A DNA stretch of 64,000 nt from Psammoneis japonica (lineage: Eukaryota). The DNA lies in assembly GCA_008632985.1 (NCBI GenBank), contig QPGO01000029.1, forward strand, positions 570,874-634,873. Direction: 5' to 3'. This document shows positions 14,656-64,000 of this stretch, one piece after another; position 1 is the first letter of the stretch, and every line of letters starts with the position of its first letter. A model generated the notes under the pieces. It saw only the letters and a list, made by a program, of their open reading frames with translations. It was not told the DNA's origin and ran no database searches. The position numbers and the translations under genes are program-made.

Positions 14656-15199
14656 GACATTGAAGGAAGACATCCTGAACGGTTCTTATTCATCAAGTTG
14701 AACAAACGCAACGATGTATGCGCGTTGGCGAAACCATTTTCGTGATATTCTTCTGAGAAACATTATCGCTAAATGCAAAATAGACTCTACGGTGACAAAA
14801 GGCTTCTGATTCTATTTTAGATGTTTGTGAATATAACTGCGTCCTCGTTCGTGTTAACAACGGGCCTGTAGAATTTGTGATAACTGGAAGGCCCTAAGAA
14901 TGCAGTTGTCCACGCAGAATCAAGGCTCACCAGGTGCAACCCATTGCTGCTTTTGATGCCAGTCCCAATACTCCTTCAGAAGCAGATCAACCGTACCAAT
15001 ATCACAGGCTGCTTGCACTTGTCGCCGAGCGGAAAGACGCATTGACTCTGCTTCTTCTAAATCAGGAGCCTTATTTTCCACATGCCAACCGTCCAGCTGC
15101 TGGAGTTTCTCCTCTTTATATGCCTCGAGTGGCACTTGCTGTGCTAATCTATGAGCCAGAGGAATGTCATCTTCATTGTCACTGTTCATTACTTGATCC

Positions 15200-17500
15200 T
15201 CATCGATGTCAGCACAAATGATTTTTCTGCAATGCTTTCTGGTGTGGGTGCTGCCTGCAGACAAATCTCTGCACACAATGTGCTGTCGCACAATCAGCAC
15301 TGAGTCTGCTGAGGAAGCTTGTGATGCATGCCCCATGAGGACTTGCATGCCAACAAAAAAAATGGATGAATGTTCACACTCTGGACACCCACAAAAGCAT
15401 GTCCTCTTGAGCATTTCATGTGCAAATGCTTCACACACGAGAGATGCACAATTCACACTCAAAGTTGATTGTCGTTTTGTGGATCACCTGGAGCTGGAAC
15501 ACGTCAATTGTTTTTGTCATCTGTCGCATGTTTTGCGCACACATTTCTGCATGTGATGTTCCACAAAATTGTCCCACACTCCCTGTTTTGCAAAGCCCCA
15601 GATGTTTTGTTCAACACATCTGTGGGAACAACAATGCACCCAGCACATTCTTTGATGTCTGAAGAGTGTGCTGGGCCAAGCAAAAAATGATGTGCTTCAA
15701 TGACAGGTCTGTGGAAAATCATGTTTTCAAGCAAAAAACAGAGAATCTGTGTGAGTTTCAACTGTTTGCAACACCAACAGTGCAGCCACAAGGGCTTTTT
15801 CTGTGTGATGAGCTCACGCGTTTTTGACACAACTTTGACACAACTTTTGACACAAATCAAAGTTGTGCCACAGTTTCGAAAATGCACACCCGGGTGTTTT
15901 TAGAATTCCTGCGAGACTTCCAGTGCAAATTTTGAAGAAAAAAAAATGCACAACCCAGGTGTGCATTTTGAATGTTGTGTCACACATTTTGAAAAATGCA
16001 CACACGGGTTCTTTTGCATGCAGAAGCCTGGCACATTCCTGCATGACACGAAAGTTGGGACATTTTTAATTGTGCACATCCGGGTCTTTGCACAACTTTT
16101 TTTGTCTCACACAGTTTTTTGTGTCAAAAGTTGTGTCTAAAAATGTCTTTTCTACGAGGTGGTGCAGGCAATGAATTTGTCTTGTCCAACAGATCTTGTG
16201 CTGGCAGGCACAATTCACATCAATTTTGACGTGCAGGTGGCAAAAATGGCGATTTCCTGCAGACCCGATGGATGAGTTTGTGCATTCACACAATTGCCTG
16301 CTCTTTTTCTGTTGGCGATCATTGACACATCAATTGCCTGACAATTTTGCTGCGGAGCTCGCACGTGGAATTCTGCGGGCCAAATGTCACATGGATTCCC
16401 ACCTGCATTGGGAGTGCATCAGCGTGCTTTGTCCAAACATGCTGCTTGTGCGGATGGCTGCCAACTGGCCAGAGAGCACAGCAGAGTTGAGGTGCAGCAA
16501 GGAGTGCATGAGGAGTGTCAGCTGGCTGCTCTGGTGTCCAGCCTGCCAAGCACCTCAATTGAGGCAAAAAACCCAATTGAGGTGGTTTTTTGACCCCCCT
16601 TGCCAGATTGCCAAAACCATCATGGCCCTTGAGTGACAGCAGAGTGTTGTTCTCCATGCTTTAAATCCTCTTGCAGGGGCAACAACTCAGCTCTTCATTT
16701 GCGCTCGACCACACATTTTCTTCTTCACCTTGTTGGCATGCAAACATGTGCACACACAAAATTTGCAAATTTTGGGACTTTGACAATGATGCGACCACCA
16801 TTTTTCAAACTCTGGGACTCTCTCAACAATCAAGCTTTGAACAAAATTGTGGAACACAACAAGGACGACCTTGTCATGGCAGCCTGAGTCTTGAAATCGA
16901 AGTGACAGCAGTTGAGAAAAGGAGGGTTCAAGCGAAAAACACAAAAAACGGCACCACAAAAATTCGGGTCTGCAACAATGGCAAACATGTGCTGCACACA
17001 CTGCAGGCTGTTTTCTCCATTGTGACAGAAGCTTGCTGTTGTGTGCAGAGCTTTCAAGGAGCAGTTTTTGTGATCACAGCATTGGAGTTGCTGCCACAAA
17101 ACAAGCGGCCGACACCGCCAATGATCTTTGTGTCGACTTGTGTCACCAAAACACAGCAATCAACAATGGCAAGCACATGATGTGTTGACATGCATTAAAT
17201 GCAGGAGACAACATGGTGGTTGAAATTGCGACAAACGGCTTTTTGTGAATGTGATGGGCAATTTTCGAATCCCACGTTCATGGCCAATTTGTGGATCTCA
17301 AAATTCAAATTTGGTGCAGGCAAGCACATTGTGCATGCAAAGCAAGGTGTTGTGAGTGTTGAAATGGCTTCATTGTTGTTGCAGAGACTGCTTTGTGCAA
17401 CATGATTGACGTCGTCATCTCCCAAAATGGCAGGCGAGCTTCGCCTCAAGCAACTGGCTGAGGCAAATTTCGCTGCTTCACAACTGAGGAAAGAAACCGG
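15200..17500. other. TpA-erased, CpG-depleted block A (decayed sequence)
   Basis: TA is nearly absent and TG/CA very frequent. ORFs lack Tyr and are rich in C/H/Q/M/W. Confidence 0.85.
15821..16143. mobile_element. Small inverted-repeat element (MITE-like, ~320 bp)
   Basis: Perfect 20-bp inverted repeat gacacaacttttgacacaaa (15837-15856) versus 16118-16137, plus internal repeated aaaatgcaca..cc(g/a)gg motifs. Confidence 0.5.
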
Positions 17501-17590
17501 CAGACTAGAAGTAGACACTGGCTGCTCCAGCAGAGAAGCAGCTGCTCTAGCTACTGCCAGCTAGAGAGAGCACTGCAGTGGCTACGAGTG
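17500..17590. repeat. Partially converted CTAG-family element at the right edge of block A
   Basis: gactagaagtag...ctgctccagcagagaagcagctgctctagctactgccagctagagagagcactgcagtggctac. Confidence 0.65.
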
Positions 17591-17957
17591 CTGGAAAGTG
17601 GCTGCGCGCTGTTGACGGAAACTTCCCATTGCGAGTTTGAAATTTTGAACGTCATCATTGCGTCATCAAATGTTTGTTGGTGGCGTCTGCTCGTCAACTC
17701 AACGACCGTCGTCTCACCACCAGCGAGCAACAGACAACATCAGACCAGCAGAAGTACTGTAAGGCCACCATCATCCATCACCATTACACACACCTCACTT
17801 GATCATACCGGTATTACCTTTGATCCTTCCATGGAATGTAGTATTGACCCTTCTACTCCTCTATCACAACAGAGAAAGTATCGCACGAGCGTTCTCCCTT
17901 CACATCCGTAGTTTGCATTGATAGTTAGTACGACTTATTACTTATTGAGGGAACAAA

Positions 17958-19958: not shown

Positions 19959-22695
19959 CTGCTATCTAGTGAGAATCCTTGTGAGAGGTAAATAGTTTCA
20001 AGATGCGTGACCGTTTAAGTTTGTAACGACCATATCAAGCGTTTGTGAATCTGATTTAACACGGGAATTGCAAGTGCTCATCGCATTTAGAATGTACCCT
20101 CTCAATGTAATAGCAGCGAGGTCAATGGCAATCGTGAAACAAGACTTGTCTCTCCCATGCGGGAAGAATCCTTTCATCAATTCATCCGCAAGTTGGGAGG
20201 CTTGATCTTGATCTCGAGATTCTCGCTTTCGTACGAAACCTGTGCGGGGTGCTGATTTGCTTGGTTCTAAGGGTGAGTTTGGGCATCGGTGATCTTGAGA
20301 CACGATGAGTTGTCCTCATAGACAGCAAATGGAGGCAAGTTGCCAGGGATGGTGGCCACTGTCTTGGAAAGCCTTCAAGTGAGTGGACAGCTTGTTGTGC
20401 AGTGATTGGGTTGCTTGAAGAACACAGCCTGGACAGGGTGACTTGAGACTGCAGCGTGGCTGGACACCCAGAAAACCACGCATCCAGCACAGAGAAAACC
20501 AAACAACCAGCTCAGAACTTGACAGACATTGGGTTGTCATGCCTGTCTTCAACGCCAAAAAGTCAGGCAACTTCCAAATCCACATGGCAATCAACTTGTT
20601 GGTCCTTGGATGGGGGTGGAATGAGGCCTTGACCTGCAGCACCCTCAAGATGATGATGCAGAGTGTGCTTGGCTGCTGGAGCATGAGACAAGGCTTGTTG
20701 AGCACATGAGAGTCATGCAATGGCACACCAACTGCAGAGCAACATTTGATGTCTTTGTCAAAGAGAGAACCATCCGCATTTGCTCCAGCAGGTGCAGGCA
20801 CTCCATTGTTTTCTTCCATCTTGGTGGCACATCAGGGGACCTTCTCTCAAGCACACAAAACTTGTTCAACCTTCCTTGAGCACACCAGTCTTGAGGGAAG
20901 GTGAGTGGAGGACCCACTCATGGCAGGTGCAAGTGTCTTGAAATGACCAACGCCAAGTTGCTGCTGGAGAGGTTGCTGCAAGCACAATGACACCAGGCTT
21001 TCAGCAAGTTTGGCACACCATCAAGCAATCTTTTGAGCTTGACAGTCCTTGTGCCTGGCAATGCAGTCAAGTCAGGGGTGCAAGGTTCCACAGCCCAGGC
21101 TTGACAATGCAACAGAGCACCCACTTTGATTTCCATGGCCTTGACCCACTCATCTGCATCTCATCAAGAGTCAACCAACCACCCAGCAGCAGATTGGTCT
21201 TGTTCCAAAGGGACATGATTTGTGTCTCCTCCATTTTTCCTGCTCTTCCATTTTGACATCTGCATCAGATGGCCAATGCAGAAGCAGCGCATGAGCCTGC
21301 AAGAAGCACCATGTGAGCTGCAGCAAGCTCATTCCTTTCTTCAATCAATGTTGCACCACAGCACTGATGAGCTCAAGAGTGGGTTTTTGCTTGCAGCCTC
21401 TGTCCTGCCCATCACCCTTTGTGGCTCTCCGACCAGAGCTCCTCCAGATTGCCCCAGACTTGGCCAGCTCCAGCTCAAGGTCTGGTGCTTCTTGTGGCCA
21501 TGTAAAAACCCACCAGAGATGAGCTTGTTCAAGAGCATGTCAGTCACTGGAGGAGGACAGCAGAGGAGGTGAGAACAGCAGAGGGTGCAGTCAGCCCATT
21601 GATTGTGCTTGATCATGAACATGACAAATGCCAAAAATGAAAGTGGGTGGCATGAGACAGAGAACAGAGTTGTTGCTTTGCACTGAAATGGTGCTGCCTG
21701 TCTTTTGTCTGCCCACCACTTTCATCTTTTCAAAAAATGCTGCAAAACATGCTGCTGCATGGTGCTGCATGGCACCCAGTGCTTCTTTGCAACCCCTTCT
21801 ACCCTCCATCAGATCCCACCCACCCCTTCTGTGCTGCAGATTCCCACAATTGTTCCAAAGCAAATGTGAAGGAGGTTGATTGACAACAAAACCAATGACA
21901 AAAACAACAGCTGAGTGCAAGAAGATGAAGAACAACACAACCATGGCCACCTCATCATCCTCTTTTTTGACATCACATGTGGTTTGTTCTTGTGGTTTGT
22001 GTGGGCTGCGGTCTTCTTGACTCTTGTCAATCTGGCAGTCTTTGTGGAGGTGGGCTCCAGCAATTTTGGTGATTTTCTTTGTGGTGTCACCTTGTCAATG
22101 CCTTTTTTTGTGCAGTGGCCATTTTTGTCTGCCTGGTGCTTGCACTGTTGCACAGCCACAATCTTGGTGGGGGCAGTGTGGTGGGTCCAGGAAACATTGC
22201 CTGTGCTGGAGATGTGGAGCAGCAATGTGGCTTGAGAATGGCATTGGCAAAGATTGTGGCAGAGGAAGTTGCCAGCCATCACTTGGAGAAAATTTACCCC
22301 ATCACTGCAGCAACAATGAAGTTTTCATCCCAGCCAATGTGCTTCCAGGCAGCAGGCAAGATGACAGAGGGGCATGTCCTGGAAGAGGCCAACTGGGTGG
22401 TCGTCCCTGCATTTTGGGTGACAATTTGGGCAAATGTTGAACCAGGGGCTTTTGTGACAGTCCAAGTGGAAGCTGCTGCTGTGCTGTCCAGTCAAGCACT
22501 GGCACCAAAGGCACTTGCCAGGCTCGCCCACCCCAAGACACCAGCAAGTGAGGCAGCAGGTGTTTTGAACCAGGAACACTTCTGCGGAGGCTTCTGGTGG
22601 AGTTTTTGAACCATGCACTCTGGACCCTCCTGGACACAGCAGCTGGGGTTGAGGGTGTTGTTGTAATGCCATCACCAACATGTGCCAAGATGGCA

Positions 22696-22798
22696 CTCCA
22701 GTTCAAAGTTTTCTTGTTGTGACATTGTTGGTGTTTGCTCTCCTTGCTCCAGTTCAAAGTTTTTCTTGTTGTGATGTTGTTGGTGTTTGCTCTCCTTT
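22696..22798. repeat. Tandem duplication, ~51 bp x2
   Basis: ctccagttcaaagttttcttgttgtga(CA/TG)ttgttggtgtttgctctcctt occurs twice. Confidence 0.85.
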
Positions 22799-25700
22799 GA
22801 AGTGATGCAATTGAGGACCCTGCAACACTGTGGCGTGCTGTTGCAACATGTGCTCCTCCTTTTTGACAAAAGCCCACTTGGTGTGCATGTTTTGGGTTTG
22901 TTCAATCTTCAACCCTGTCACAGTGGCACCAGTTGGGGCTTGTCCCCTGTCAGGAAATCAAGGTGCACCCTGTGATGGACACAAGCTGTTGTGCCTCAAT
23001 GGAAGTTGCAATCCCAGCCAGAGGAGTGACGCCAATGCAATGGAGTGCTGCTGCAACAATGGCAGCAAGATGTGTGTTCCTGGCAGTGCCTTGGAGCTGG
23101 CTGGGTCACGGCACACCGGTTGGAGGCTTCTGTCCATCACCACTCAATGGTGTCCTGGGTTCACCCTGTGCCAACTGCCAATGGAACATGCCAGACAACC
23201 AGTTGCAACTCAGCTGTGGGAGGTGTGTGGTGGAGTGCTGCTGCAACAAAAGCACACAGGCCTCTTTGTGGCTAGTTTGGCACCCAAGAACTTGGCCAGG
23301 AGGGTGGCACATTCTCTGGGCTTGAGGGGATGGAAGGGGTGGAGAGACTCAGCCAGCCTGCACCATGATGGGTCTTTGTGCCTCTTGGTTGACTGTTGTT
23401 GCAACATGACCAATGCCACATGTGCACAAGGCCTGTCAGACCAGGAAGGTCATTGTGTTGCCAAACACCTCTTTGTCCCAAGTCCAAGATGAGCATGGCT
23501 GACAAGAGCAAAACAAAAACAAGGCATCATCAATTTGCTGCCACTGTGCTGTCTTCAATGATGGAGGCTTGTTGTTGACTGTGTGCAGACAACAGAGCTG
23601 GTGTCCTCCACAAGGCAGCAGCAGGACTCCTCCCTTTCATTTTGTTTGATGCATTGTGTTGTGACAAGTGACAAGCCCCTGCAAAACATCACAGTTGCTG
23701 TGGTGTTGCACAGACTCTCTGCTGTGACACACAGAGTGCATTGAAAAGAGAACAAATCTGTCATTGACCAAAGCAGTGACAGCTGATTCATGTGAGTTTC
23801 CAAGACCATTGTTCCTTGGTCTTCCTCCTCCTTCTCATTCATCCTTGTTTGTCATCATTGGCAGTGTGATCAAGAGAGAATCAGCAGCATCACCTGCAGC
23901 AAGACAAGGACTTCAGAGACCATTGCTTCAATGAATTGTTTTCATTGCAAATGTCATTGTCAACAGGGACCTTCTCTCATGGATGCTCCACTTGCACCAG
24001 CACCATTGCTGTTGGGAATTTTCCTTTTTCTCCAACTCATTGGCAATCCTTGAAAGATCACACTTGTCAGGCAGATCATGCTCCAATGAAGTCTGGCCAC
24101 CTGACAAGCAGTTGAGTCCTTTTGTGGCCACTGGAAAGTTTTGTGCCAAGACAAATGTTGGCCTCAGTGATTTGTTGCATGACCATGTTGGGTTTTAAGA
24201 TGCCACAAAGTCCACCAGTGCAGCCTGCAAATGCAAATGATCAAGATGTGCAGTGTGCTTGCTTTCTGTGCTCAGAGCCAAGCACATGGAGGTGCATCAG
24301 GGCTCTAAAAATTGGGTGCTGTTTGCAGCAGGAGAACAGAAGAAACAAAAGGGTCCAAGAGCAGTTCTGCACAGCAAACAATGAGCTGGGCACAATGCTG
24401 TCTTTGTGGCCATTGTTTCTGGGGTTGTTGGCAGGAAAATTTTCCCATTTGTCACAGTGCCATCTTCCTCTTGTCAGGCAGAAGAAACAGGAGCAGGGGG
24501 TGCATTCCAAAGGTGCCTGGGCCATCTTGACCAAATCATCATCACAGTCATTGTTGCCATCTGTTGAGGGTGGTGCCACCCTGTGCTTGGCAAGGCAAAC
24601 AGCTGCAATTTTTTTTTTGGCTGATGCCTGTTGCAACATCAGTGGTCCTGTTCTCTTCCTTGCTCAATGGCTGCTTGATGGTTGTTCCAGAGGTGGTTGT
24701 GAAAGACTTCCCTCTTCCCCTTCTTTTTGTTCTTCCTCTCTGATCCATCTTTGTGAGTGATGTCTTGTGCCAGAGCCAAAGCCAAATTCTGTCAGGGAAT
24801 CTTCCTGTGATGATGGACTTGGCCCAGCTGAAAACAGAGCAGAGATGCAGAGCTGCTGTTTTTCACATGGTGGCACAGCAGGGCCCACACCAGAAGATTG
24901 ACAGCTTGGTGCAAGACCAAAGAATCTCAAGAATTGACTTTGGGTCATTTTCAACAACCAGACAGTCTGCCTCATCAGCAGTCTTGGGATCACAGAAATC
25001 AAATCCATCCCAATGTGAACAGACAAAAAGGCAAGTTTTGATGCACACCTTCAAACTGTGCATTTTAAATTTCCACAAAAAAATGTCTTGTGCACTGCTG
25101 GGCAACATTGCCACATGACTCATGACAGCATCAAAGAAATCATTTGGGTTTTTGCAGAATTTTTGCAAAGTGCAGGCCAGAAATGACTTGACAGCAGCAG
25201 GAGCTTCAGCCTCAATGACATCAAAGGTCAAGCAGGGTGTCAGCCTGTTTTCCAAGTGGTCATCAGCTTCTGCAAAAGCAGCACTCTCCAACCAAGGTGT
25301 GAAAGTCTCCTTTTTTGACCACAGTTTGCTGCATGACCACACAAGTGAAAGTGACAGTGGCAGCCAGGTCAACATCAAAAGCATTGTCACATTTGGTGTG
25401 CCACATTCTGGCACATGATGCAAGAAGTTCACCAGCCCAGGATCCTCTGGCAGCTTGGTTGTTGGGCTGGTGTGCCAGGTGGAACACTGGCATCTAGATC
25501 AGCAACAGCTGAGTCAACAGATTGACAGAGGGGTTGTCATGATGATCTGGAGTGCAGCAACTCATTGTGTGGAGCTCAACTTTCTTGGCAGCTTTGCAGA
25601 TGCATTTGTTGTGTCATCTCCTTTTTTGACCATTTTCATCAGTGTGGGTGGCTTCCTTCTTGATGCACTGATCTGGGCTTGGGAGGCTTGAACTCTTGAA

Positions 25701-25849
25701 GCAAGGAACAAAACACACCTGCTCTCATCACATTGCAGAGTTGCGCTCCCCTGCTTTTTTGATGTGCATGGGCCCAAAGAGCTGGGCACACATTTTCTCA
25801 TCAACATGAGTTTGTGTGCCTGTGAGCTTTCATCAAGATTGCTGTTGCA

Positions 25850-26200
25850 GCATGCCCTTCCAGCATGAGTGCTGAAAAAGTGCAATTTGAAGGGGTGTCA
25901 TCCCTGTGGTCAAAGTCACTTTTAAACTTTCATTGGCATTGTGCTGCAGAGCAACAAGCAACACACATCTCTGTGCAACCCCACAGTGGCGCAGTGCAAG
26001 GCCAAAAACCCACGGCACACATGTTGTCAGTGACGTCAGTGGCACGTGTGTTGCTTGGAGGGGATTGAGGTGCCCACAGTGCACATCTTTGTCTGCATCA
26101 GCTCCTGACTCCAGCAACAGTTGCACCTTGCAGCCACAGTTCCTTGTTTTGCAGAGAACTGCAGGCAACAGAGGTGCTCCTCCTGAGCAGGCAGCAGGAC
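25850..26200 (-). pseudogene. Decayed ankyrin-repeat gene fragment
   Basis: PLLPAVLC...KVQLLLESGADADK...NPLQA and ALQHNAN...GMTPLQIAL resemble ankyrin repeats. Confidence 0.55.
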
Positions 26201-26602
26201 AGTTCATGCTCACGTTGGCTCCAGCGAGAAGAGCACAAAACAACAAACATCTTCTGGAGGATCCACCACAAACTGCACACCTCTGAGTCAAATGACCAAA
26301 TTCCTGAGTTCCCTGTCTAAATTTACAGCCAACAAATGATGCCAAACTCCAACTTCAACAAATGATGACTGCTCTGCTTGGCTGACAATGTGAGAGTGTT
26401 GAGAATTCCCGGTGCAGTGTGTTTGCAGGTGAGACCAGCCACTTCACAGTTGACAAATGAAGTTGAACCATGGGCTGTGGTGGCAGATGCTGCTGGTGCT
26501 GCAGCCTGCATTTTGGAGCTGCTGTGGCTGTGAAGTTCAGAAGTTTTGGGAGCAGCATGCCGAAAAGGCTGAACAAGTGGAGCGTGCTCTCGTCGATCCT
26601 GT

Positions 26603-26704
26603 GCCCCAAAACCACAGTGCGATGTGACACAGCTGCAGCAGTGTGGTGCAGTGCCCCCCAAAACCACAGTGTGATGACACAGCTGCAGCAGTGTGGTGCA
26701 GTGC
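26603..26704. repeat. Tandem duplication, ~50 bp x2
   Basis: ccccaaaaccacagtg(c/t)gatg..acacagctgcagcagtgtggtgcagtgc occurs twice. Confidence 0.85.
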
Positions 26705-27331
26705 TGTGACCTGGGGCACTTGGCTACTTGGGAAAGTGGTGGCGATGAAGACTGCAGTCATCTTGCCAAGCAACAGGTCCAAAGTTGCCATTGTGCGCAC
26801 AGCACTTCACACGCGCCACTTTTTCTCGGCCGTTTCCCCAGCCTGGGGCAACTGCTGAGCCCAGGCTGCCCATCCACCCTGCCAGAACATGCATCTCAGC
26901 TCCTCCCTCTTCACACAGTGCCTGCTTCTTTTGTTCACTTTTCTTCTCTGTGTTTCTTCAGTGTGACAAAGTGAGACTCTCACGTCGTCTCGTCATCATT
27001 GTGGCGATCTCCTTCGCTCTTCCGCGCGCTGGCCTCACGTTGTGCGCGTAAATATCTGGCGCATTTTCGTTATCAGTCTACGCAGTTTCTACATACACGC
27101 TTTACATACTGCATTTCACGTACATTCTAGCGACATGATGGACAAAACGAAGGCAAAGATCGAAGCACGCAGGAGCGGCCATGGCGAGCGCTGCCGCTTG
27201 TTCTGTGCATCAAGCATCAAAGTGAATTTGAAGAGGTCTGCCGAGAAGGATCATAAGTTCAGATCCCAAATCGCAATCGATATCAAACTTTCATACGACT
27301 CGATTGTTGGCGTCAACCAGATCAAAGTGCT

Positions 27332-33300: not shown

Positions 33301-33600
33301 AACTTGGGTCTGTCAACTTCTTATGATCGAGCGAACTTGTTGGCAGGAAACAGCAGTCTCGGCATCGTTACTGGGGCCATCCAGTCACAGAACAGTGGCT
33401 TACCAAATAGCTCGTACTTGCAGCAAGCCCTACTCGGCGGCAACCTGCAAGGGCATCTCGGGGGGAATATTCCGAATGGAACGATTTCAAACGTTGCGTC
33501 AGTAAATCCACCATCTAGTCAAACAAATGAATCATCGATGAGCGCAATGGATTGGGATCCACGTCCTTTGGAAGAGATGTCGAACGATCCACACGGGTAG
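27332..33600 (+). CDS. DDT-WHIM1-PHD chromatin protein (BPTF/PTM-like); intron 32051-32136
   Basis: DDT ALAAYSLLRTLSCKLRLSPFTPNVFL...LLGHIHVCLLRIL; LDGLSWPLFL; WHIM1 YHRLSVEQKLTLLEFLLDEIL; PHD CGICGLEGELLCCDGCTASYHRQC...WLCPEC; GTGAGT...CAG intron in phase. Confidence 0.88.
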
Positions 33601-33641
33601 ATAGTTAAGTTTAAATGCAACTGCCAGTGTCGAGTTACATC

Positions 33642-37579: not shown

Positions 37580-40370
37580 AAAGTTGAGTCTGGTTTGTGG
37601 CACAACTTGAACGTGTGGGTGCGGGCACCTCAGCAGGTTTCTCGGAATCTTCACGGGGTTTCAAAAATGGCACAGAATCTTGAAGAACGTTCATCAATGC
37701 CTTGACTTGTCTAAAACTCTCGTTCCCCAATCTTTGGCCTTCCGCTCAATTGCAGAGTGACAGTCAGTCAGGCTTGGGTTCAGAAACAGCAAAACCTTTT
37801 CAAAAGGCAGGCTCGCCTGAGTCTTTGACAGCGTCGTCAAGCGCGTCGACATCTCCAAAACTCTCTTTCCCCAATGTCCAATGCTCAATTTCATCTTAGG
37901 GAGATGGTTGGACAAGATTGGGTTCTGAAGCAGCAAAAAATTACAGCGTTCCTGCAGAGCGCAAGCCTGAGTAAGGACTTGCGTGATGACGTCGTTCGAA
38001 ATTATGTCTGCAAGTTTCCACCAAAGCTGAAATGCTTCTGACTTTGACTCCAACAATGTGCTGTGCATTTCCAACAAGAAGGCTGACTGGATCTCCAAAA
38101 ATGTTGTGAACGCATCTTGCATCGGGAATCGGGACTGACTTGGTCTCAACCATGCTGTCGGGAGCAGTGTTGCAAAAAAGTTGCTGGATGCTGCCGTTGG
38201 AGTCGCCATTGTTGTCCTGCACAAAATGGCCAGAGACACAATGCTTGCTGGCATCTTTTTCTGGCACAATCATGGGCATGGCATTGTGCAGCAGTTCTTG
38301 GGCATGACTCAGAGACTTGTTGCCATCGTCAAAATGAGCGCAAAAGCTGGAAAGTGGCAGCGGCATTTTCGAAGGGTGCAGCACTGGGAGCAGTGTGTTG
38401 ATGATGATGTCCTGACAGCGGCTGAAGGCAGTTTTGATGCCAGAGAGCTTGGTTCTGTCAAAAAGCTTGCACAGGACATCTCATTTGATTGTGGTGATGC
38501 TGTCAGTTGCCGTGGTTGCCTTGATGGCCAAGGCGCTGCCACAGCACTTTGCCGAATCAACAAACAAGGCAGAGAGGCAGTGGGCTGGTGATGGCACCAG
38601 CATTCATGGCAGCAATGATGGCAAGGCCAAAGTTCATGATTTTCATGGCAAACAGTGAACTGAGGAGCAACCCAGATTCGAGTGAGAAAAGATTCTGTCT
38701 GCAAATTGAGGCGGCGACTTGGTGCAAAACCAGACTTGTTCCAGACCCAGGTGGTGCGTTCATGCCCGTTTTCGCACAAAAAAACGAATGTTTTGTGCTT
38801 TGTGCAACATCATCAACAATTTATTTAAATGATCACATTGATGGCTTTCAAGTGAAATGAACAGAGTAAATTCGAGCCAACAAACAGCCAAAATGGCACC
38901 ATGGCTTTCAGCGACCATGTCGGCCCACTTTTTTCAACCCCATGGAAAATTGAATGCCATGATGAAGACCGCAGCATTTGACATGGTCTGTGGCATCTGT
39001 CACAACAATGAAAATGCTTGATGCAGGCTGCAGCATGGCACAAGAAGACTCAATCTGTTGGCACCAACAATTGCGCCTCAATTCACTCACAATTTGCCTC
39101 CAAGGCACATTTCTTTTCCATTTCCATGCATGTTTCCTCAACAGCATGGATTCACACAAGTGTGTCAGTTGTTTGTGCCAATGAAACAGTGAAAAAGGGT
39201 CCAAAGTTGATGCCATTGCGTGCACTGAGCTTTGCTTCTTCTCATGCATTCGGAAACTCATCAATCAATGCATGTTTTGTTCAATCCGTTGAGACTGACT
39301 TGCATTCAAACAAATGGACAAAACATCATTTGTGTCACATTTGAGAGCACATTGTTTCATTGGAGTGACAATTGATGTTGTTTGTGAACACATGAGTGCA
39401 GTTGTAAATTGCTCATCGGAAAAAGAAGCTCTCATCTTAAGGCGCAATTTGGCGATCAACAACTTGGTCCATCCTCAGTTTCTTGTGCATGGGCACATGC
39501 ACGAGACCTTTCTGCATGTCAAAGCGACAAAGAAAAAAGACTCTGTGCAGATCTGCGCTGCATGATTCATCTTTAGAGGAGAAGAAGCTGTGACGCACTG
39601 TCTCTTGTCATTCCGAGAATGTTGAGAGGCGCTTTCATCAAATTCCCGTTGCATCCCGTGTTTTGTGCCTCTCGAGTCTACAAAGATGAGTCAGGTTCGG
39701 CTTCAATCACACCATTTCTCCACCTTGTCATTGAAGCCACTGCCACGGAGCTCAATGGTGGGACCCCCTGCTGCTGTCCACACAAAAGAATTTGCAAATG
39801 CATCGACCGCATGTCTGATGGCAACAAGATTCGAGACATTGCTGAACGAGATGGTTTGTTGTGTTCTCAGCACAATCCGATGAAGGAGAGGCAGACACAG
39901 AAAGCCAATGCTGCCTCTGAGCCCAATGCAACACGTCAAAAAGGAAAGGGAAAAAGAAAGAGGGGTGGAAAGTCAATTGAAAAACAACCCAAGAAAGCTT
40001 TTGCCGGCAAAAAGAAGTTTGCAGGAAAGAAAAAGCCGAGGCAACAACAAGAGAACACAAAACTTGCACAAGCAGCCAAGGACAAAAGTGGACAAAAATC
40101 AAGAAACTGGCGCTGAAGAAGTGGTGACAAGAAACAAAGAGAGCTGTCATTGCAGGATCTTTTTGAAGACGCCCGACTGCCATGCTCAAGAAAGATCTGC
40201 AAAGAACTGAGGCAGCTGACTGATGCCAAAATTGACCACTGAACAGCACCTCAAAACAATTCCAAAGAGCATGATCAATTGCTTGAATGGCACAGTGCGC
40301 TCACAAATTCTGCCCTCCAGCCCTGCTGAAGTGGCTGGTCGCTGTCTCCAAAGCACAAGAAGTCGAACCG
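37580..40370. other. Block C: TpA-erased but CpG only partly depleted; relic coding sequence
   Basis: 38041-38820 contains 0 TA and about 21 CG by hand count. Confidence 0.85.
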
Positions 40371-40530
40371 GTGCTCTTTGCTCTAGAGCAGCAGCTGTGG
40401 ATGCTCTGCTCTCTGCTCTAGCCCTCTTTAGAGCAGGCCTGGCAGCTGCTCTCTCTAGTTCTACCGGTGCCTGCTCTGCTCTCTCTACTAGCTACTCGAG
40501 CTACTAGCTAGCTAGAGCCTCTCTCTCCAT
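40370..40530. repeat. CTAG-family element with a conversion gradient at the right edge of block C
   Basis: Left part reads gcagcagctg/ctctgctctctgctc; right part reads ctctactagctactcgagctactagctagctagag. Confidence 0.75.
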
Positions 40531-40733
40531 TAGACAGCTTACCGTGTACGGCATGTGTTACGGTAGTCTACGCACGAGAAGGAGGAGGATAGTCGAGAGA
40601 GAACAACAGACAGGCAGACCGTGCGCAACGACTTTTTGCGTGCATTGTTTTTTTTTATTTTGCGTTGCGCTTCATTCTGTTGAAAAAGATCGTGTGAAGG
40701 GAGATGGTCGAAGTGTCAGGTAAACCATAAACC

Positions 40734-51722: not shown

Positions 51723-51929
51723 TGCGATGGCAAGTTGTGATCAGCAAGCCAACTGCTGTTCTTCAATGGGAATCGAGACTAAATCCACCGCTAGAAGAAC
51801 GAGTTTGTGTCATCGCGGTGGCCGGTGGGTCGCCGCGCGGTGGGTCCAGGTCCGTCTCTCGTCGTTTCTATCTGGGTTGGGGGTGCGGGCTGAGCTCACC
51901 TTGGTTCCGTCCATCCATCCATCCGATCC

Positions 51930-54230
51930 ATTGTGATGACAAGGACAAAGGACAACACCCCACATCATGAGATTCAATTCTTTGGAATGAAGACAGCCTT
52001 TGCATGCCTGCTTGTTCAAAAATTGTGTGCCAAACATGAGCTTTCTCTTCAAAATGATTGCGCCAATGAACCATGAATCACAGGACAAAACAACAGCACA
52101 GCAGCTTGGCTGGCAAAATGTTCAACCAGAATGAAAGCAATGCAGCAATGTCAGATCTCTCGTCCTTGAACAGTGGTTGAAAGCAAAATCAGACTGAGTC
52201 TGTCCATGCAAAACTTGCTTTCCACTTCCACAACAACCAGCCTCTCAAATCTTAAAAGATGGCTGCACAACAAGCACGACACTCCATTGAGCTGTCAGGC
52301 TGGATGTTCTGACCTGACACCAATTAAACCCAGAGCTTTGAAAATGTGGTGATGTGCCCACCTGAGTGGAATTGGCTGGCAAAGCACTTCAGAGACTTCT
52401 TCAGACAATTGTTTTTGCTGTTGGCTGGCATGCAGCAAGAAGTTGCCGCCATGACTTGCACAACTGAGATGGTTGGCGATGATGCTGCCACACCTTTCCT
52501 TGTGCAAGACAAATCATCTGAGGTGCAAGGTCAAATGCAGAAATCATGCAGGAGCACACTTTGAAGTTGAAGGGAGTCCAAGAAGACCCATCACACTGAC
52601 ATGTTGTCTCTTTTGCAGGTTGACACTGGTGCTGTTTGCAACAAATGGAGAAGAGTGCAAACAGCATTGTCTCCAAACAAGGAATGTGAAAAACATTGCT
52701 GCCTCTCAACACCTTGCAATTGTTTGCAAACAAGCCAACAACCCAAGGCAGGCATCATGATGGATTCTTGTTTGCCACACTTGAAAGCAATGAATCTTTT
52801 CTTGCTGTTTGCTGATTCTTGTTTGCTGCATTTGAAAGTGACAAATCATTTGCTGTTTGTTGCTGTGTTTGACCCATGCATGGACTGTTTGTTGTTGGCA
52901 TTTTTTGCAGAGAACAATGTGTCACATTGCACTCCACATGAGGCAACAACTTGACTTGCAACATGTGGCTGTGTGACAGCTTTGTTGCTTGTTGTTGTCT
53001 TTGACTCTCTTTCACCCCCTTGGTTGCCTTTGTTTTTGCAGATCATGTGAGACTGTTGTTGCGCTCCTTTTTGTTGTTGTGCTGCTGCTGCAATCTGTGG
53101 TGACCAGCATCATCATGCGCATTGATGAGAGTGAGAGAGCTGCATCCTGTGGGTGTGTCTTTCCTTGCAATGCAATGCATTCTCACACATGCATCCCTCC
53201 TCACAATCCAACACATTTTTTTCAACTTGCTGGCAGCAGCAGAAGGTGGCCAAGGCAGTCAGTTGCCAACAACTCCTCTGTGCACCATTTCATTGGGCAC
53301 ATGTCAAATGTCCAACAATCAAGTGGACTTCATTCACACACATGGCAGCAAGCACCTTGGGCATTTGAGGATGCTGACTCCACAAATTGCACCAACAACA
53401 ATGATGTCAGCTCTTTCCACATCTCCTCAAGCTGAGAAATGCCAGCCAACTGAGTGTGGGCACATGTTGTGCTCAAAATGTGTCCAAACTGCAGGTGCCA
53501 TGAAAATTGTTTTGTGTGTCACTGCTCACTTAAATCTTTTGCCAATCATTGCTGGAAGCAACAACACAACCTTGTCCATTCTTTCCACAGAATCAGCTTG
53601 GCTGCCAACAAAACTTGTTCAAACAAGGCACTCATCTGGAATTGGCAAAGCAACCAAGAGCTGCAGTGCACTCACAAGCCTGCCATCTTCAACTTCTTGC
53701 CTTGCCTTCACTTCAACTCCCTTTCTTTGCATTCTTCTTCCTCTGCCATCAGCAATTTGATTGGCACCTTTCTCTTGATCTTCTCCTCTGCTCTCCCATC
53801 ACCGTGTCTCTCTGCTGGAACAACTGTCAAATGATCGCAATGTCCTCTCTCTCCACAAACTCAAATCAACAAAAGCCAACTTCAGAAGTTGTGGGTGTCA
53901 GTTTCAATGACTTCAACAAATTGCTGAGGAAGACTTTGGTTGCTCAAGTGGATGTGTGCACAATGTGCTTTCATCACATTTGATGGAACCCACACTGAGT
54001 GCCCCATTCTCACCACCAAGGTTGGCCAGTTTGTCGTCAACAGGAGTTGATGCATCTCTGTCACCATCAGGAAAATCTCTGCAACACACAAGCCAGAAAT
54101 GGTTCTTAGTTCTCAACATCATCATCAAGCAATGAATGCTGGGCAACTTCTTTTTATGGGATTGCTGTCATGCTGTGGGCTGATTGTGCATTGGACAACC
54201 CTGAAAACATTGCACACTGGACAACTCTTT
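51930..54230. other. TpA-erased, CpG-depleted block D
   Basis: TA and CG rare, TG/CA saturated, ORFs Tyr-free. Confidence 0.85.
52763..52859. repeat. Tandem duplication (~50 bp) with reciprocal CA/TG differences
   Basis: gattcttgtttgcCAcacttgaaagCAaTGaatc versus gattcttgtttgcTGcatttgaaagTGaCAaatc. Confidence 0.85.
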
Positions 54231-55734: not shown

Positions 55735-57343
55735 CTTCACAGTTCCCTCCAATGGTCGCGACGCAGGTTAATGGTATGGAAAACTACTTGTAGGCGAGAC
55801 AATGACGGTGACTTCAGCCCGTGCTGTCATTGTGGGGGCGTGCCGGTCGGAAGTCGGCGGCGCAGTCGGCCGAAATTCTACTCTTTTGCCACCGTTTTCG
55901 AAAAACACAGAAAACGCAGAAAAGGGACGTCTTTTATCAAAAAATCAATCTCGAGCACGACGCATGACAGGCTGAGGTCCATCTGTCAATCTATCTTGCC
56001 ATCTTGCTTTGTTGGTTCGCTCTGCCTCTGGCACAGCACTTTGGAGGAAGTCTAGCTGCTGCTGCAGTGCTCGAGAGCAAGTGGACGGAAATGGAAGCTT
56101 CGTGCTTGGTCGTGTCAATGAGCAGCGCCACGACCTCACAACACCACCACATCTCCTGACTTTTTTTGCACCTGCCAGCTTGCTGCTCCGATCTCCAATG
56201 CTTTGTCACCATTGCTGGAACTTTCATTGCCAAACAGAGGTGCGGGTCCATTTGAGCCTCTTTGCCATTTTCTCTTCTCCCTCTCCTCTTTTTGTGTGCT
56301 CTGGTGCGTGCCTGACCTTGACAGAGAGAAGCCCCCATTTTCAGCCTTGCTCACATCACTCACTGTGCCCTCAGCTGCTTTTTCCATTCTCCTTTGTTCT
56401 TGTCATCAACTCCAAGGCATGCCTGACATCTTGTCTGTGAAAGAGTTGACTGCACTTGTTTTCTTCTTTGGATGGCTGTGCAGCAGCTTGGTTGATGCGG
56501 CACATCTTTCTCTGCGAAGAACAAAAGAAGACACCAAGTCACCTCAGTCATCCCACACCATTTCCACACATCTCTCAAAGGGAAACCTGCACCCACCTTG
56601 GGAGCATCAGGGTCATCAACTTGAGTGCCAGTGGGGAAGTTCTTGCCAGGAGACAGAGGGAAAAAGAGAGCGGGAGGACTGCAGCCCCTGCATGCAGTCT
56701 TCTGGAGACGCTCTGAGCAGAGCAACATGCAATCACACCATGGAACCCTGTTGTGGAACAGCTGCAACTGCACCATGAAGTCACACAGCCATCTCCCAGA
56801 GGCCTTGTTGGGCCATTCACAGCATCAGGTGCCTGGGGCAACTTGGGATGAAAATGCTCATCAAGCTCAAGCAAGGTTCTTGTCTTGCAAAAGACCTGAA
56901 GACAGCAAGGCCAGTTGAGGCTGGGGGGGTGCAATTCCCAGCCTCTTTTGACAAACACCCACAAGAGATGTTGTGCCATCAGCTGGCATCATCACAAGCC
57001 CAGCATGAATGGAGGTGCAAGCTGGGTCACTTTTGTGTGATCCAAAAGGTCCCCTGACAGATCTCATGGTTGCTTGGTGCCAGGCCACCAAAACATGGAA
57101 GCCAGCAAGGCTGCATTGTTGTCCAAGAAAGGGGAAGCTGTGACCAACAAGACTCTGCACAAGCAACCACAAGCTCAAAAATTGTGAGCAGCCTCTGCCA
57201 ACACCCACACTGGTGGAGCTGTGCAGCAGCCTGTCAACAACCATCAACGTGCTTGAGCTCTGGGTGGGGCCTCACAGCTCTGGACTGCAACACAAGTGTT
57301 TTTTGATCATGTGCCACATGTGCATTGCTCAAGCACATTTCCA

Positions 57344-57368
57344 TGTGTGTGTGGTGTGTGTGTGTGTG
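57344..57368. repeat. (TG)n microsatellite
   Basis: tgtgtgtgtggtgtgtgtgtgtgtg. Confidence 0.8.
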
Positions 57369-58779
57369 CTCTTTTACAAAAAATTGCACTGACTTTGTGT
57401 TTTGCAAGACAGCAAGTGCTTTGGTTTTGCTGTTTCTGGGAACAAAAACAAGCTGGTGGCTGCACTTTTCAATGTCTGCAAAATGCAGCTGAGCACACCA
57501 GAAACAATGCACTCAATGCATGAACGATCATTGTCATTCACAAATTTGCCACTTTTTGTGGTGGTGTGGTGGTTGGCGTGCCCACTCAATTCTGCACATG
57601 AGCCACGCAACAGCAGAGTTGTCATGGGGTCAACAAACTGGGCATGCCAAAAGGACAAAAAGGGGCAAATCTGTGAGCCATCACAGTCATCTGCACTTGG
57701 GGCACATTGGCATTTCTGGCTTGCCATGGTGCACTCTTCAGACTTTGAAGAATGTGCCTGGTTTGATTTTGCTCTCAGCAGTCATCAGAAATGATGGAGA
57801 ACAAAATGCTGACAGCTTCACAAAACAGGATTTGTCACAGCCCAGTGCTGCAATGCAAAATCCCACCCAGAGCTGGAAAACACACTGATGGCTGTTGACA
57901 GGCTGCTGCAGCAGCACTGCAGGCAAAGGCAACAGCTGCCAACAATTTCTGAGTTTGGCTGCTCTTGACAAGTCTGTAAAATTGCTTCTTTGTGACTGCT
58001 GTTCTTTCCCCACTCTCCCACTTCTGCCACCCAACATGGTCACAGCACTGCTGTCCAGTGGTCCAGCAGCATGCTGCAGCTTTCCTTTTCTTGCCAAAAT
58101 GCAGCCTCAGTGGCTTTCACTTCTTGGCCTGGCAGCAACAACTGCGAGGTCCACCGGGCAACCCATTTTGATCATGAGAAAGTGTGGCCCAGTTCATGCT
58201 CATTTGTGCTGGTTTTCTGACAATGCTTGCTCACCCTTGCCTTTTTGCTGAGTGTGAAATCTTTTTGCAAGAAAGTGTGCATGGAAAATGCATGCTCAGC
58301 ATGTGGTGCACAATCAAAAAACATTCATGTTGCACCCCATTTCTTTGCGGTCCCACCCACAGAGCTCAAGTGCTCTCCACAATGGAGAAACAACACACTG
58401 TGACCATTGCAGCAGGATCCATCACACCAACAGTCACAAACAAAGGGAGCAGTGATGACATCATGTGCTGTCACTGGCAGGCAAACACAGCACATTTGAG
58501 AAAACATGGGGAGAAGCAGGCGGGACACAACACACTCCAACCAAGCCCAGTTTGGTGTGTCCAGCTGTGCACAGACATGACATGTTTGTGGAAGTGCAGC
58601 ATGATGAAATTTGAACAAAATCAACTCATGAGTTCAGTGTGCATGTTAGAATGACATTGTCAAATCCACACCCATTTTCAGCCCCAGTTCCACGCCAGCC
58701 AGGGGCATGGCTTGCCGGGAGCACAAACAGAGAGGGGGGTTGTTTCACAGCATGGAGGAGACCATTCTCATGAGAAAGA

Positions 58780-58802
58780 GGAGAGAGAGAGAGAGAGAGA
58801 GA
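58780..58802. repeat. (GA)n microsatellite
   Basis: gagagagagagagagagagaga. Confidence 0.85.
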
Positions 58803-61800
58803 CAACACCACATGGGTGCTGGAGTGATGAGAGTCAGAAAGAGCAGAGCAGACAAAACCCTCCTCCTCCCCAGTCACACAGCAAGCAGCAGATGTTGCAC
58901 CCAAGAAACAGGAAACCCAAAGAAGCCACCGGGGCAACAATTTTGCAACAAAGCTGGTTGGTGCTGCAGTGGACAAAGGCTGCAACTCCTGACATGCTGG
59001 CTGTCAAGGAAACAATGTGGACAGGTTTGGTCAGGCCTGCCTCCTGGTGGGTGGGATTGTTTGGCATCTGCATGTCCTTCAGGAAGTGCTGCACCGGTGC
59101 CCTCTGCTCTCTGGATGCTCTGCAGTGGCAGAGCCCTGTGGCTGGAGCAAAGAGTGGCATCCTCTCATTGCTTGGCACTCAGAGTCTGCTTCAGAGGGCT
59201 GAAAGCTCATGTGTGTGAGTGATTGAGCACATGGGGTTTTAACACGCTGTGTGCGATGGACAAAATTTTGCTGTGCATGCACACTGAACTTGTTTTGGCT
59301 GACATCCACCCACATTCCCAGCCACCACTCTAGTGAGACACTGCAGACCCTGCAAATGTTTTTCCTTCTAGCACATTTTGAGTTGCACACATTGAAATTT
59401 TAATCAGAAGGATCTTGACAGAGCACTCAATTAAAAAAGAACTGGCTTCAACTCTGTCTTTGGCAAATGCCATGTTCCATCACTCCACGCCAGCTCTTTG
59501 ATCACATTGACATGCCAACAAAACAATTTCTTTGTCCTCACAGAAACATGCTCCTGCCTGTGGCTCCTCATCCCAGTGTCAACCAGATTTGTGTGGCTTT
59601 GTGACAGTTCCAGCAAAGTCTCTTTTCCAGCATTTCAAAAGATTGTGAGGGCAACAGGACCAGCAGCAATCACACAGATCAGTCATTCCAGGGGTTTTTG
59701 TGAGACAAGTTCTCATGGTGTGTTTGTTGCATTTTGTTCATTTTCCACCACCAGCTTGACTTGTCTGTTTTTGGGAGGAACAAACAAACATCAGCCCCGC
59801 TGCAGTGTCCTGGGCTCATTCTTGTTCCTGTGGAGCTTGGCATGATTTTTGAATTGTTCTGACATGCACTCGGCTTTTTTGTTGTCATTCAGGACCAACT
59901 CCAGTGGCATTTTGAAGCAATCTGCATCATCAGTGCATGCAATGGAATGGCTGGCAAGCTTTTCCAAAGGTCTGACAGCAAATGTCTGGACTCTTTCTTG
60001 ATGTTTGCCACTCTTGTTTGGTCAGCTGCATCAAAATTCAAACACAAGCCTCTGCTCCAGCACAGCAAGTGTTGCACAAGTGTGTTGAATGGTTTGTCAT
60101 TGAGCCATTCACACAGCCCCACACAAACTGATGCAACATTTCAATGCTTTGGCATGAAAAGACTTCATCATGTCTTGATGACATGGTTGCATCAATGGCA
60201 ACATCTTCCTCATTGTCAACAAATTTTCAAAAACAATGTTGATCACACGTGCAAATCTGGAACCTCGCTGACATCCCCAGAATCACGCAGAGCATGGCAC
60301 AACAAGAGAATCTTGCTTTTGGGAGTGATTGCATGGGGAGTGACAGGGGCAATTGGCGGAGCACCTGTCAAGTAGTGTCCTCCTCATCACTCTGTGCAGA
60401 AGCACAACATCCCCCTGCTCTGCTTCAAGCAGTTGCCAATGTTGTTGAGAAAGTCAGCTGCCATGTTGAGAGACTGGAGCATGATGATGGAGAATTTCAA
60501 AATGCTGTTTTTTTCTGGGGGGAGTATCTCAGCAACAAAAAGGTCTCAAAAGCAGTGTTGGCATTGAATCCCTGAGGACACAGTCCATCAGCAGATGCAA
60601 ATTGAGTGAGGTTTTGTTGAATGAGCACCTGTGCAACTGCTGCATTGAGAAATGGCCCCTGCAACTTGGTGAAATGAGTCATCTCATTGCTGCTGCTGCT
60701 TGTTCACAACTGGATTTAAGAGTGGACTTAAGATTGAGAATCAAACTTGAGTCAATGTTTGACCTGCACCCTGTGCTGAGCCCCCCCCCCTTGAACAACA
60801 TCTTCAATTGCCATCTTGCTGCCACTGCTGTGGACCAAGTGTGTGCTTGATGCCATCCTGAAGTGACTCAAAGTCATTCACACAAAATCCATCTTTCTCA
60901 TGAACAAGAAAAGAAGCTCTGAATCTCTTCAGCACACTGCTGTTGCACCCTGCATGGCTCTGCCAATCACCTCAGTGCTCTCACCACCATTCACACCTGC
61001 AACTGTGGCTTTTTCATCATTGTGAGAAAGCAAAAAAAAAACAGAAATGACAGCAGCATGTGGCAGCAGCAAAAGTCATGTTGGTTGCAAGCAACCATCA
61101 ACAATTGTCAATGGCACAAGTGCAGTTGAAAAAACATCAATGACAAAACAATGCAGGCCCCAATGCAGCCACAGCTGCATGAGGTGGCCACCTGAGCTTT
61201 GCTGACTTCATCATGGTGCATGACCATGATTGGCCAAAAGTGGTGGGCAGGGGAAAACATGCTCAATGCACTCATCATGCCAACCGCCCACATTGAAGCT
61301 CTTTGCTCAGTTTAAACAAAGATCTTGTTTCCAAATGGCAGATTTTGTCACATGCTCAAATTGTGACATTTGACAGTTTTGTTGTGTTCTTTGCTCTCTT
61401 GTTCAAGGTTTCTGTGGCCTGTGTGTGCTGGCATGGCCTGGGAGAGATTTGATTCAGTTTGGTTTTCATTTTGGTGCACATGACACATCTGTTCATTGGA
61501 GTTCTGCAGTCATGCCAAAATTTGGCATGCTTGATGAGCTCCATTTCTTCTCCTGGGCTCTGTTGTTTGCTCTGTTTCAGGGGTTTCAATGGGTGGCACA
61601 TGCCCTGAGAAGCAAGTTTGATTGAGTTTGCTTCTCACCCATTTGTCAGAGCCTTGTTGTCAATGTCACCCATCCAATGCTTGAGCTCTGTTTCTTCTCC
61701 TTGGGCCAAGCTGTTTGTTTTTCTTGTGTTCAAGGTTCTTGTGGCACACCCCAAGAAGCAACTTTCATTGAACCCCCACTTGTTCAATTCTGGCACATGT

Positions 61801-63654: not shown

Positions 63655-63737
63655 AGAGATGCATGCACTGGCATCTCTGAGGCAGGAGAGCATGCCAAGA
63701 GATGCACGGACTGGCATCTCTGAGGCAGGAGAGCATG
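63655..63737. repeat. Tandem duplication, ~43 bp x2
   Basis: agagatgca(tgc/cgg)actggcatctctgaggcaggagagcatg occurs twice. Confidence 0.85.
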
Positions 63738-64000
63738 TCAAAAGAGCTGGAGCATCTGTTGGGAGATGCCACATCAGAGAAGGACAAGGCAACCTGGGGC
63801 AAGCATCAATGCAGTCACCATGTGAAACAGAGTGTGATCCACAAGACACAGAAGGTGAAAGGCATTTAACACAATTGTGGGACAGTGCACAAATGCTGTC
63901 CACCACAAGGTTGAAGGAGTGACAGAGTTGCAAAGGAGTGGGATGTGATGACAGCACTGTTGGAAATTCTCATGCAGATCTTGTTTGGTGCAAATGAGAA

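Follow-up and report, generated by a model that had tools for sequence, protein, structure and literature searches.

The closest described system to the one considered here is that of the chlorarachniophyte Bigelowiella natans, in whose mutation-accumulation lines Mettrop et al. place 231 of 302 nuclear mutations in integrated giant-virus and virophage regions, 230 of these 231 being A>G or T>C changes, all at TpA (10.64898/2026.01.13.699255). The TpA rate given there is approximately 6e-7 per site per generation, around 1000 times background and in only some of the lines, and the genome carries 124 clusters that are poor in TpA, rich in CpA and TpG and mostly unannotated; an ADAT2-like adenine deaminase is proposed (10.64898/2026.01.13.699255). 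The fungal process of repeat-induced point mutation (RIP) converts C to T mainly at CpA, creating TpA and lowering GC (PMC2621366), and a hypermutation directed at CpG or TCG is described in basidiomycetes (PMC3318451). Diatoms methylate CG in their repeats via DNMT5a, and 31 of 60 species possess RID-related DNMT4 genes of unknown function (PMC9998398). Here, we describe five discrete blocks, nearly devoid of TpA and saturated with TpG and CpA, within 64,000 nucleotides (nt) of the diatom Psammoneis japonica (assembly GCA_008632985.1, contig QPGO01000029.1, positions 570,874 to 634,873 of the forward strand; hereafter the window, with positions counted from its first letter). The analysis draws on the composition of the blocks, on a bookkeeping of dinucleotides lost and gained, on the separability of TA loss from CG loss, on a flanking-base rule and on independent conversion in repeat arms and alleles.

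The limits of the blocks were set from the gaps between successive TA dinucleotides, the same two-state switching also being visible in 1-kb windows. Together the five blocks (Table 1) make up 22,016 nt, or 34.4% of the window, as an initial annotation made from the letters alone had claimed in placing five such blocks over about a third of it. TA in each block lies 94-98% under the window's own non-block level, with Poisson log10 P values for the deficits of -30.6 to -105.3, and the longest gap without TA, which is 241 nt outside the blocks, reaches up to 1,322 nt inside them. The 41,984 nt of non-block DNA hold 1654 TA, an observed/expected ratio (o/e) of 0.60, with CG at o/e 1.00 and CA and TG at o/e 1.10 and 1.15, respectively, while GC is near-identical in the two compartments (47.9% in blocks vs 48.6% outside). 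The same annotation had counted about 12 TA in 6.5 kb of block 2, where there are 13 in 6,730 nt. It had also described TG and CA as saturating on both strands, which agrees with their o/e of 1.60-2.00 and with their balance (777 CA vs 786 TG in block 2, and 930 CA vs 911 TG in another pair of counts), and the edges as sharp, the usual TA density indeed returning within tens to a few hundred nt. Its further statement that CG is scarce holds strongly in three blocks (o/e 0.11, 0.11 and 0.09) and only moderately in the other two (0.40 and 0.51). The most extreme part of block 2, at 23501-25500, has 0 CG and only 4 TA in 2 kb, and a loss of CG to 0 over such a length is stronger than the usual CpG-decay equilibrium. 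A search for the same signature, defined as any 600-nt window with TA o/e below 0.15 and TG/CA o/e above 1.5, found it in 0 of 80 metagenome loci (503,493 nt) with relatives of the neighbouring CDC20 gene, these being mostly short or transcript-like contigs that serve as a chance control only and say nothing on other diatoms.

Table 1. Low-TA blocks, edge zones, repeat arms and variable sites in the window (o/e, observed/expected ratio; X1, the public DNA run described in the text)
Feature	Position	Strand	TA (o/e)	CG (o/e)	CA/TG o/e	TG+CA excess	TA deficit + CG deficit	Remarks
Block 1	15191..17506	no strand	6 (0.03)	48 (0.40)	1.89/1.86	213	85 + 88 (=173)	High-copy repeats
Block 2	20320..27049	no strand	13 (0.03)	45 (0.11)	1.95/1.78	619	252 + 350 (=602)	6,730 nt; single copy
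Block 3	37600..40384	no strand	12 (0.06)	77 (0.51)	1.60/1.69	176	98 + 87 (=185)	
Block 4	51870..54107	no strand	3 (0.02)	13 (0.11)	1.84/2.00	216	85 + 119 (=204)	
Block 5	56054..64000	no strand	19 (0.04)	40 (0.09)	1.90/1.81	726	294 + 427 (=721)	Continues past the window end
Edge zone, TA-free with CG kept	26560..27048	no strand	1 (0.04)	22 (0.57)				489 nt
Edge zone, TA-free with CG kept	56054..56320	no strand	0	9 (0.49)				267 nt
Edge zone, TA-free with CG kept	17100..17505	no strand	1	14				
Inverted repeat, left arm	56985..57321	+						In block 5; old repeat
Inverted repeat, right arm	57854..58373	-						In block 5; aligned to left arm
Allelic or strain double difference	21357..21358	no strand						Block 2; window CA, X1 contig TG
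Allelic or strain double difference	21926..21927	no strand						Block 2; window TG, X1 contig CA
TG<->CA double differences vs X1 contigs	16172-16173 and 16438-16439	no strand						Block 1
Repeat-family majority site	16367	no strand						Window TG; family G>A = TA in 95 contigs

The blocks retain their pyrimidine-purine (YpR) steps as a class, the share of positions occupied by such steps being 0.236-0.256 in blocks vs 0.238 outside, and it is the identity of the steps that has been rewritten. In all five blocks the gain in TG+CA matches the loss of TA plus the loss of CG (Table 1). When the window's normal DNA had 97% of its TA and 90% of its CG converted to TG/CA in a simulation, CA came to 1.84 vs 1.86 in the blocks and TG to 1.88 vs 1.81, and the base composition that resulted was also similar to that of the blocks. 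The blocks were mutated into their present state rather than built so, and the evidence for A:T>G:C transitions at TpA, giving TpG and CpA, is indirect but quantitative, coming from composition and from the repeat-family reads described below.

Loss of TA and loss of CG are separable. TA o/e remains at 0.02-0.06 in every block while CG o/e spans 0.09-0.51; in blocks 1 and 3, as in three edge zones, a TA-free state goes with CG at o/e 0.4-0.65, and at the gene-side edges the TA-free zones extend 270-490 nt beyond the CG-poor zones. CG loss alone is insufficient, because a deficit of 88 CG in block 1 is too small to supply its TG+CA excess of 213. As this high-copy block, with copies 85-95% alike, still keeps CG, TA erasure would appear to be the faster of the two.

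The conversion treats both strands alike and depends on the flanking bases. TG and CA are interspersed without strand-coordinated runs (runs-test z of -2.7 to +0.8, like outside), and this interspersion, together with their balanced numbers, argues against an editing process confined to one strand of RNA or DNA. The 53 TA that survive in the blocks are preceded by A in 0 cases, C in 16, G in 8 and T in 29 (outside, in the same order, 452, 409, 457 and 341) and followed by A in 32, C in 8, G in 9 and T in 4 (outside 336, 518, 350 and 455), a bias with p of about 1e-10 on each side that is also significant when measured against the contexts of block TG+CA. With the strands collapsed, survival relative to outside is 0.090 for TAA, 0.033 for TAG, 0.016 for TAC and 0.0044 for TAT; TTAA survives 19 times vs 76 outside, and ATA-N 0 times vs 452. 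The rule is strand-symmetric, its two sides mirroring each other, with TTAA largely spared and ATA/TAT never. Because TA is its own complement, it is compatible with a change either of A on one strand or of T on the opposite one.

Read support was sought in a public DNA run (X1) that carries 0.98 of the sampled window words and may be the assembly's own source sample. An independently built (Logan) X1 contig of 17,811 nt covers 17368-33999, including the entire block 2, at a word depth of 62.9, which is the depth of the flanking genes, and 18 of its letters differ from the window, 6 of them inside block 2. Because the contig spans it at flank depth, block 2 is real and is single copy at at least 85% likeness. 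Block 1, by comparison, consists of high-copy repeats: the depths of its contigs sum to as much as 13,028 vs approximately 63 for single-copy DNA, and 1,087 contigs, mostly 85-95% alike, match the 20-kb stretch that was compared. At 16300-16420 within this block, a locally CG-rich segment has a summed depth of approximately 206,000 vs approximately 63 for single-copy DNA, which implies thousands of copies of a short repeat. Blocks 1-5 share no sequence in nucleotide comparison beyond weak compositional matches, and none between blocks in purine/pyrimidine letters. Among the genes at 28738-32876, the window and the X1 contig differ by 12 letters (8 transitions and 4 transversions) in approximately 7 kb, and this difference of approximately 0.17% points to a sample that is heterozygous or that contains a second strain.

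Traces of independent conversion are found at three levels: between the arms of a repeat, between alleles and within a repeat family. Comparison of the window with itself in purine/pyrimidine letters, which are blind to transitions, gave one significant repeat only, an inverted repeat in block 5 scoring 119 bits where the maxima of five nulls were 70-96. Over 348 aligned positions its arms are the same at 230 and differ at 118, by 65 transitions and 53 transversions. In the 66 columns where YpR is aligned with YpR, 51 are the same, 12 are TG<->CA swaps, 3 involve CG and 0 involve TA; the swaps therefore occupy 12 of the 63 aligned TG/CA columns, compared with 8 other double-transition swaps over three other dinucleotide classes. 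Such swaps would be the expected trace of one ancestral TA or CG having been converted separately in each arm. Despite transversions at 53 of 348 positions (15%), TA has still not re-accumulated in the arms, and the TpA process looks persistent. The X1 contig differs from the window by two TG<->CA swaps in block 2 (Table 1), where the chance expectation for adjacent pairs of differences is 0.02 (18 differences in 16,632 nt), and further swaps of this kind separate block 1 from X1 contigs. At 16367, where the window letter before is T, contigs reading TA hold 194,811 of the 206,090 units of depth in the repeat family (94.5%), and at 16165 TA is present in 10 contigs where the window has CA. A steady state in block 2, with 13 TA vs 1,563 TG+CA, would need TA to be removed approximately 100 times faster than the transitions that re-create it. 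The blocks also contain tandem duplications of 43-53 nt (26601-26700, 52763-52864, 63651-63736 and 22694-22797), whose copies differ mostly at TG/CA positions.

The DNA around the blocks is eukaryotic and gene-dense, with genes for DMAP1-like, CDC20/Fizzy, SAP-domain, PHD-DDT, CDK-like kinase, APC1 (four open reading frames, ORFs), E2 and ERGIC/ERV proteins. The best named matches of the CDC20 ORF are in Pseudo-nitzschia multiseries (83%), Nitzschia sp. (79%), Triparma (79%) and Ectocarpus (75%), and those of the CDK-like kinase are in diatoms. Three genes of the anaphase-promoting-complex pathway, the activator CDC20/Fizzy (13566-14450), APC1 (40731-47171) and the ubiquitin-conjugating E2 (49501-49995), fall within 36 kb, which may be coincidence. 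No RNA run is listed as carrying the stretch. A second run (X2) behaves like a transcriptome, its contigs skipping 84-88 nt (one listed joint has GT..AG ends) and one of them having a loose end of poly(A); around 28738-32876 such RNA-like contigs reveal three introns of 84-88 nt. X2 contig cover stops at 14796 and 20018 and begins at 17804 and 27169, and because of where it ends and starts, blocks 1 and 2 are placed in the space between transcription units, with margins of 120-400 nt; the edge zone of block 2 ends 120 nt ahead of the RNA-like contig of the next gene (first letter 27169). No X2 contig lies on 20670-26672 or 15334-17334, an absence of cover that is not evidence of silence. The blocks are plausibly silenced or dispensable DNA, their ORFs giving no coding signal: ORF lengths fit a compositional null, the longest (339 aa) having P 0.025 under a second-order Markov model, uncorrected for five blocks, and long chance ORFs arise because only TGA stops remain. 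Rfam and tRNA scans of the 64-kb window, 16300-16420 included, gave 0 matches. The best of the Pfam matches to block ORFs, all below threshold, is that of a 78-aa stop-free stretch in block 4 (52328-52561, + strand) to Mob1/phocein (E 1.4e-4, 22.4 bits, cut-off 27); the stretch has 0 matches at E up to 1 by phmmer against PDB chains, and it may be what hypermutation has left of a host-type gene.

The explanation that we consider probable is hypermutation of the B. natans kind, regionally targeted and turning TpA into TpG/CpA, accompanied by a separate CpG decay. The blocks would then be non-coding and at least partly repeat-derived DNA between genes of the diatom nuclear genome, in which transitions at the two self-complementary pyrimidine-purine dinucleotides, TA and CG, would have been carried almost to completion. 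The TpA>TpG/CpA step would be a regional, strand-symmetric hypermutation, fast and still or recently active, to which the outer flanking base pair would matter, such that ATA/TAT would always be converted and TTAA largely spared. The CpG>TpG/CpA step would be a separate process, slower or less extensive, and most simply methylated repeats losing their 5-methylcytosine to deamination, or else an activity of the RID/DNMT4 type; by analogy with other diatoms, DNMT5a methylation and DNMT4 may be named as ordinary candidates for this CG half of the signature. We infer that the TpA step is enzymatic, with a DNA adenine deaminase acting at 5'-TA-3' as the leading candidate, and its targeting would follow chromatin state or repeat identity. 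The initial annotation had already proposed a regional A:T>G:C process at TpA that differs from CpG decay and runs counter to fungal RIP in its direction, and this proposal stands on the bookkeeping, on the erasure of TA where half of the CG is kept, on the TG<->CA swaps and on the TA majority of the repeat family at 16367. It had, however, taken the process to be undescribed, which the B. natans preprint contradicts, the same TpA>TpG/CpA hypermutation having been measured there and the ADAT/TadA-like deaminase that the annotation suggested being the preprint's candidate too (10.64898/2026.01.13.699255). Of its two other candidates, a modified adenine or thymine base and polymerase-eta mutagenesis at WA motifs (A>G at AA and TA), the latter is disfavoured, since AA is not depleted (o/e 1.25 in blocks vs 1.14 outside) and the loss is confined to TA. 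A wider proposal, which we put forward tentatively and hold to be rather doubtful, is that diatom genome defence employs an adenine deaminase at 5'-TA-3' in nuclear DNA, aimed at repeats along with other non-genic DNA and working beside CpG deamination until all pyrimidine-purine steps have become TG/CA, in effect a natural adenine editor of DNA and an old counterpart of RIP across the stramenopile, alveolate and rhizarian (SAR) lineages; such an old origin would follow from presence in both a stramenopile and a rhizarian.

Other explanations account for parts of the same evidence. A change centred on thymine, in which a modified T at TpA of the 5-hydroxymethyluracil type mispairs with G and becomes C, would leave the same footprint, since TpA is self-complementary, A>G on one strand being inseparable by sequence from T>C on the other and the context rule being equally readable as T after A hit and T after T spared. 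In dinoflagellates 5-hydroxymethyluracil favours TpA; nothing in the window bears on such a base, and we think this route improbable. A single deaminase with dual activity on DNA, acting on C in CpG and on A in TpA, would explain why both losses occur in the same blocks and both end as TG/CA with exact bookkeeping, and the ADAT2 of amphioxus is reported to edit both bases, A and C, in DNA, that of trypanosomes to deaminate C in DNA (both as cited in 10.64898/2026.01.13.699255). We nevertheless judge it unlikely, as the two losses are uncoupled both in degree (TA o/e 0.03-0.06 throughout vs CG o/e 0.09-0.51) and in extent (the overhang of 270-490 nt at gene-side edges), as the B. natans mutations are at TpA only in a preprint whose text is without mention of CpG (10.64898/2026.01.13.699255), and as the CG loss has an ordinary route open to it in the methylation that DNMT5a places on CG in diatom repeats (PMC9998398).

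Hyperediting of retroelement transcripts from A to I by an ADAR-like enzyme, followed by reverse transcription and insertion, would be in keeping with the preference of ADAR for U before the edited A (quoted in the Discussion of 10.64898/2026.01.13.699255). One edited strand would, however, give a great excess of TG over CA, or the reverse, in each element, where the two were found balanced; no reverse transcriptase or other retroelement domain was found by Pfam among 223 block ORFs, and both the alleles and the inverted-repeat arms kept changing in place, all of which makes this account very improbable. It is just as hard to believe that the composition is intrinsic or selected, the elements being TA- and CG-free by design or through nuclease avoidance. 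No TA-bearing ancestor is in hand for blocks 2-5, as such an origin would have it, yet it sits badly with the exact bookkeeping into TG+CA, the TG<->CA swaps that separate the duplicated arms and the alleles, the TA found at 16367 in most of the repeat-family depth and a signature common to blocks unrelated in sequence. An artefact of sequencing or assembly, such as might arise if the sequencer or polisher misread a modified base, is extremely unlikely. The sole DNA run found may indeed be the assembly's own source, but the separate 17,811-nt contig includes block 2 at an even depth and departs from it by 6 letters, the flanking genes on the same contig are normal, and strand-dependent misreading would be expected to give mixed TG/CA calls at each site and to break contigs.

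Several points weigh against targeted TpA hypermutation as we have drawn it. The direction of mutation is taken from composition and a few polymorphic sites, and the TG<->CA swaps between the arms could stem from ancestral CG rather than TA, 0 aligned arm columns retaining TA. As block 2 is single copy at at least 85% likeness, dependence on repetition lacks support. The possible identity of X1 with the assembly's source means that this run excludes an assembler artefact and not every artefact of the sample. No credible Pfam match was obtained for any of the 223 stop-free block ORFs of at least 60 aa; the longest of them, at 339 aa, has 0 matches among 1.84 billion proteins, and a viral or transposon origin of the kind seen in B. 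natans would appear to be without support from these ORF searches.

If the TpA hypermutation that we favour is correct, a process of this type can shape a large part of a genome, and its footprint is not limited to recognisable viral inserts. The TpA process would be separable from CpG decay, and the flanking-base preference would set a constraint on every candidate enzyme, which would have to show it too. Much primary production is due to diatoms, and genetic work is feasible in some of their species, so that the enzyme and its targeting could be found genetically. A natural enzyme turning A to G in nuclear DNA would, if true, be of interest for base editing, and blocks of this sort will mislead repeat finders, gene predictors and divergence dating.

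Compared with known systems, the blocks resemble the products of fungal RIP in that non-genic or repeated DNA has been heavily and regionally rewritten, by transitions only and between sharp edges. RIP itself is rejected, as the process here runs the opposite way, with TpA destroyed (o/e 0.02-0.06) rather than created, CpA enriched (o/e 1.6-1.95) and GC unchanged; as to repetition, block 1 is repeated, block 2 is single copy at at least 85% likeness and the blocks are not copies of each other. CpG decay driven by 5-methylcytosine and confined to repeats would cover the CG half of the signature, for which both the depletion and a matching TG/CA gain are seen, whereas it cannot remove TA. With the editing of viruses and retroelements by ADAR and APOBEC in animals the blocks would share deaminase-type clustered transitions against foreign nucleic acid and, for ADAR, a preference for U before A. 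The substrates of these enzymes are RNA or single-stranded DNA, in which their changes cluster on one strand, whereas the changes in the blocks fall evenly on the two strands and do not cluster, and while ADAR prefers G after the edited A, the base after A ranks T>C>G>A in the blocks.

It is with B. natans that the likeness is closest, and full-text literature searches returned no report, apart from that preprint, of targeted TpA hypermutation in any group, diatoms included. The present host belongs to the diatoms (Stramenopila) and not to the chlorarachniophytes (Rhizaria), and TA at o/e 0.02-0.06 is near saturation over a third of the window, compared with a Rho of 0.45 in the nucleocytoplasmic large DNA virus (NCLDV) region there (10.64898/2026.01.13.699255). 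No viral content was found in the blocks by Pfam searches of the 223 ORFs, and one block is high-copy repeat. Strong CpG loss runs alongside and a flanking-base rule is apparent, where the terms 'CpG', 'trinucleotide' and 'TTAA' each have 0 occurrences in the preprint text (10.64898/2026.01.13.699255). The B. natans rate was measured, and what we describe is a footprint read from sequence; its regional confinement with sharp edges is seen directly, while a high rate is something we infer from the 13 TA vs 1,563 TG+CA and from double swaps between alleles approximately 0.17% apart in neighbouring genes. The two systems have in common the dinucleotide and the direction of change, which is TpA>TpG/CpA and affects the two strands alike, a restriction to discrete regions with normal genome next to them, and a long-term footprint poor in TpA and rich in CpA and TpG, such that the diatom blocks would appear to carry the same signature as the targeted TpA hypermutation reported once before, in a chlorarachniophyte.

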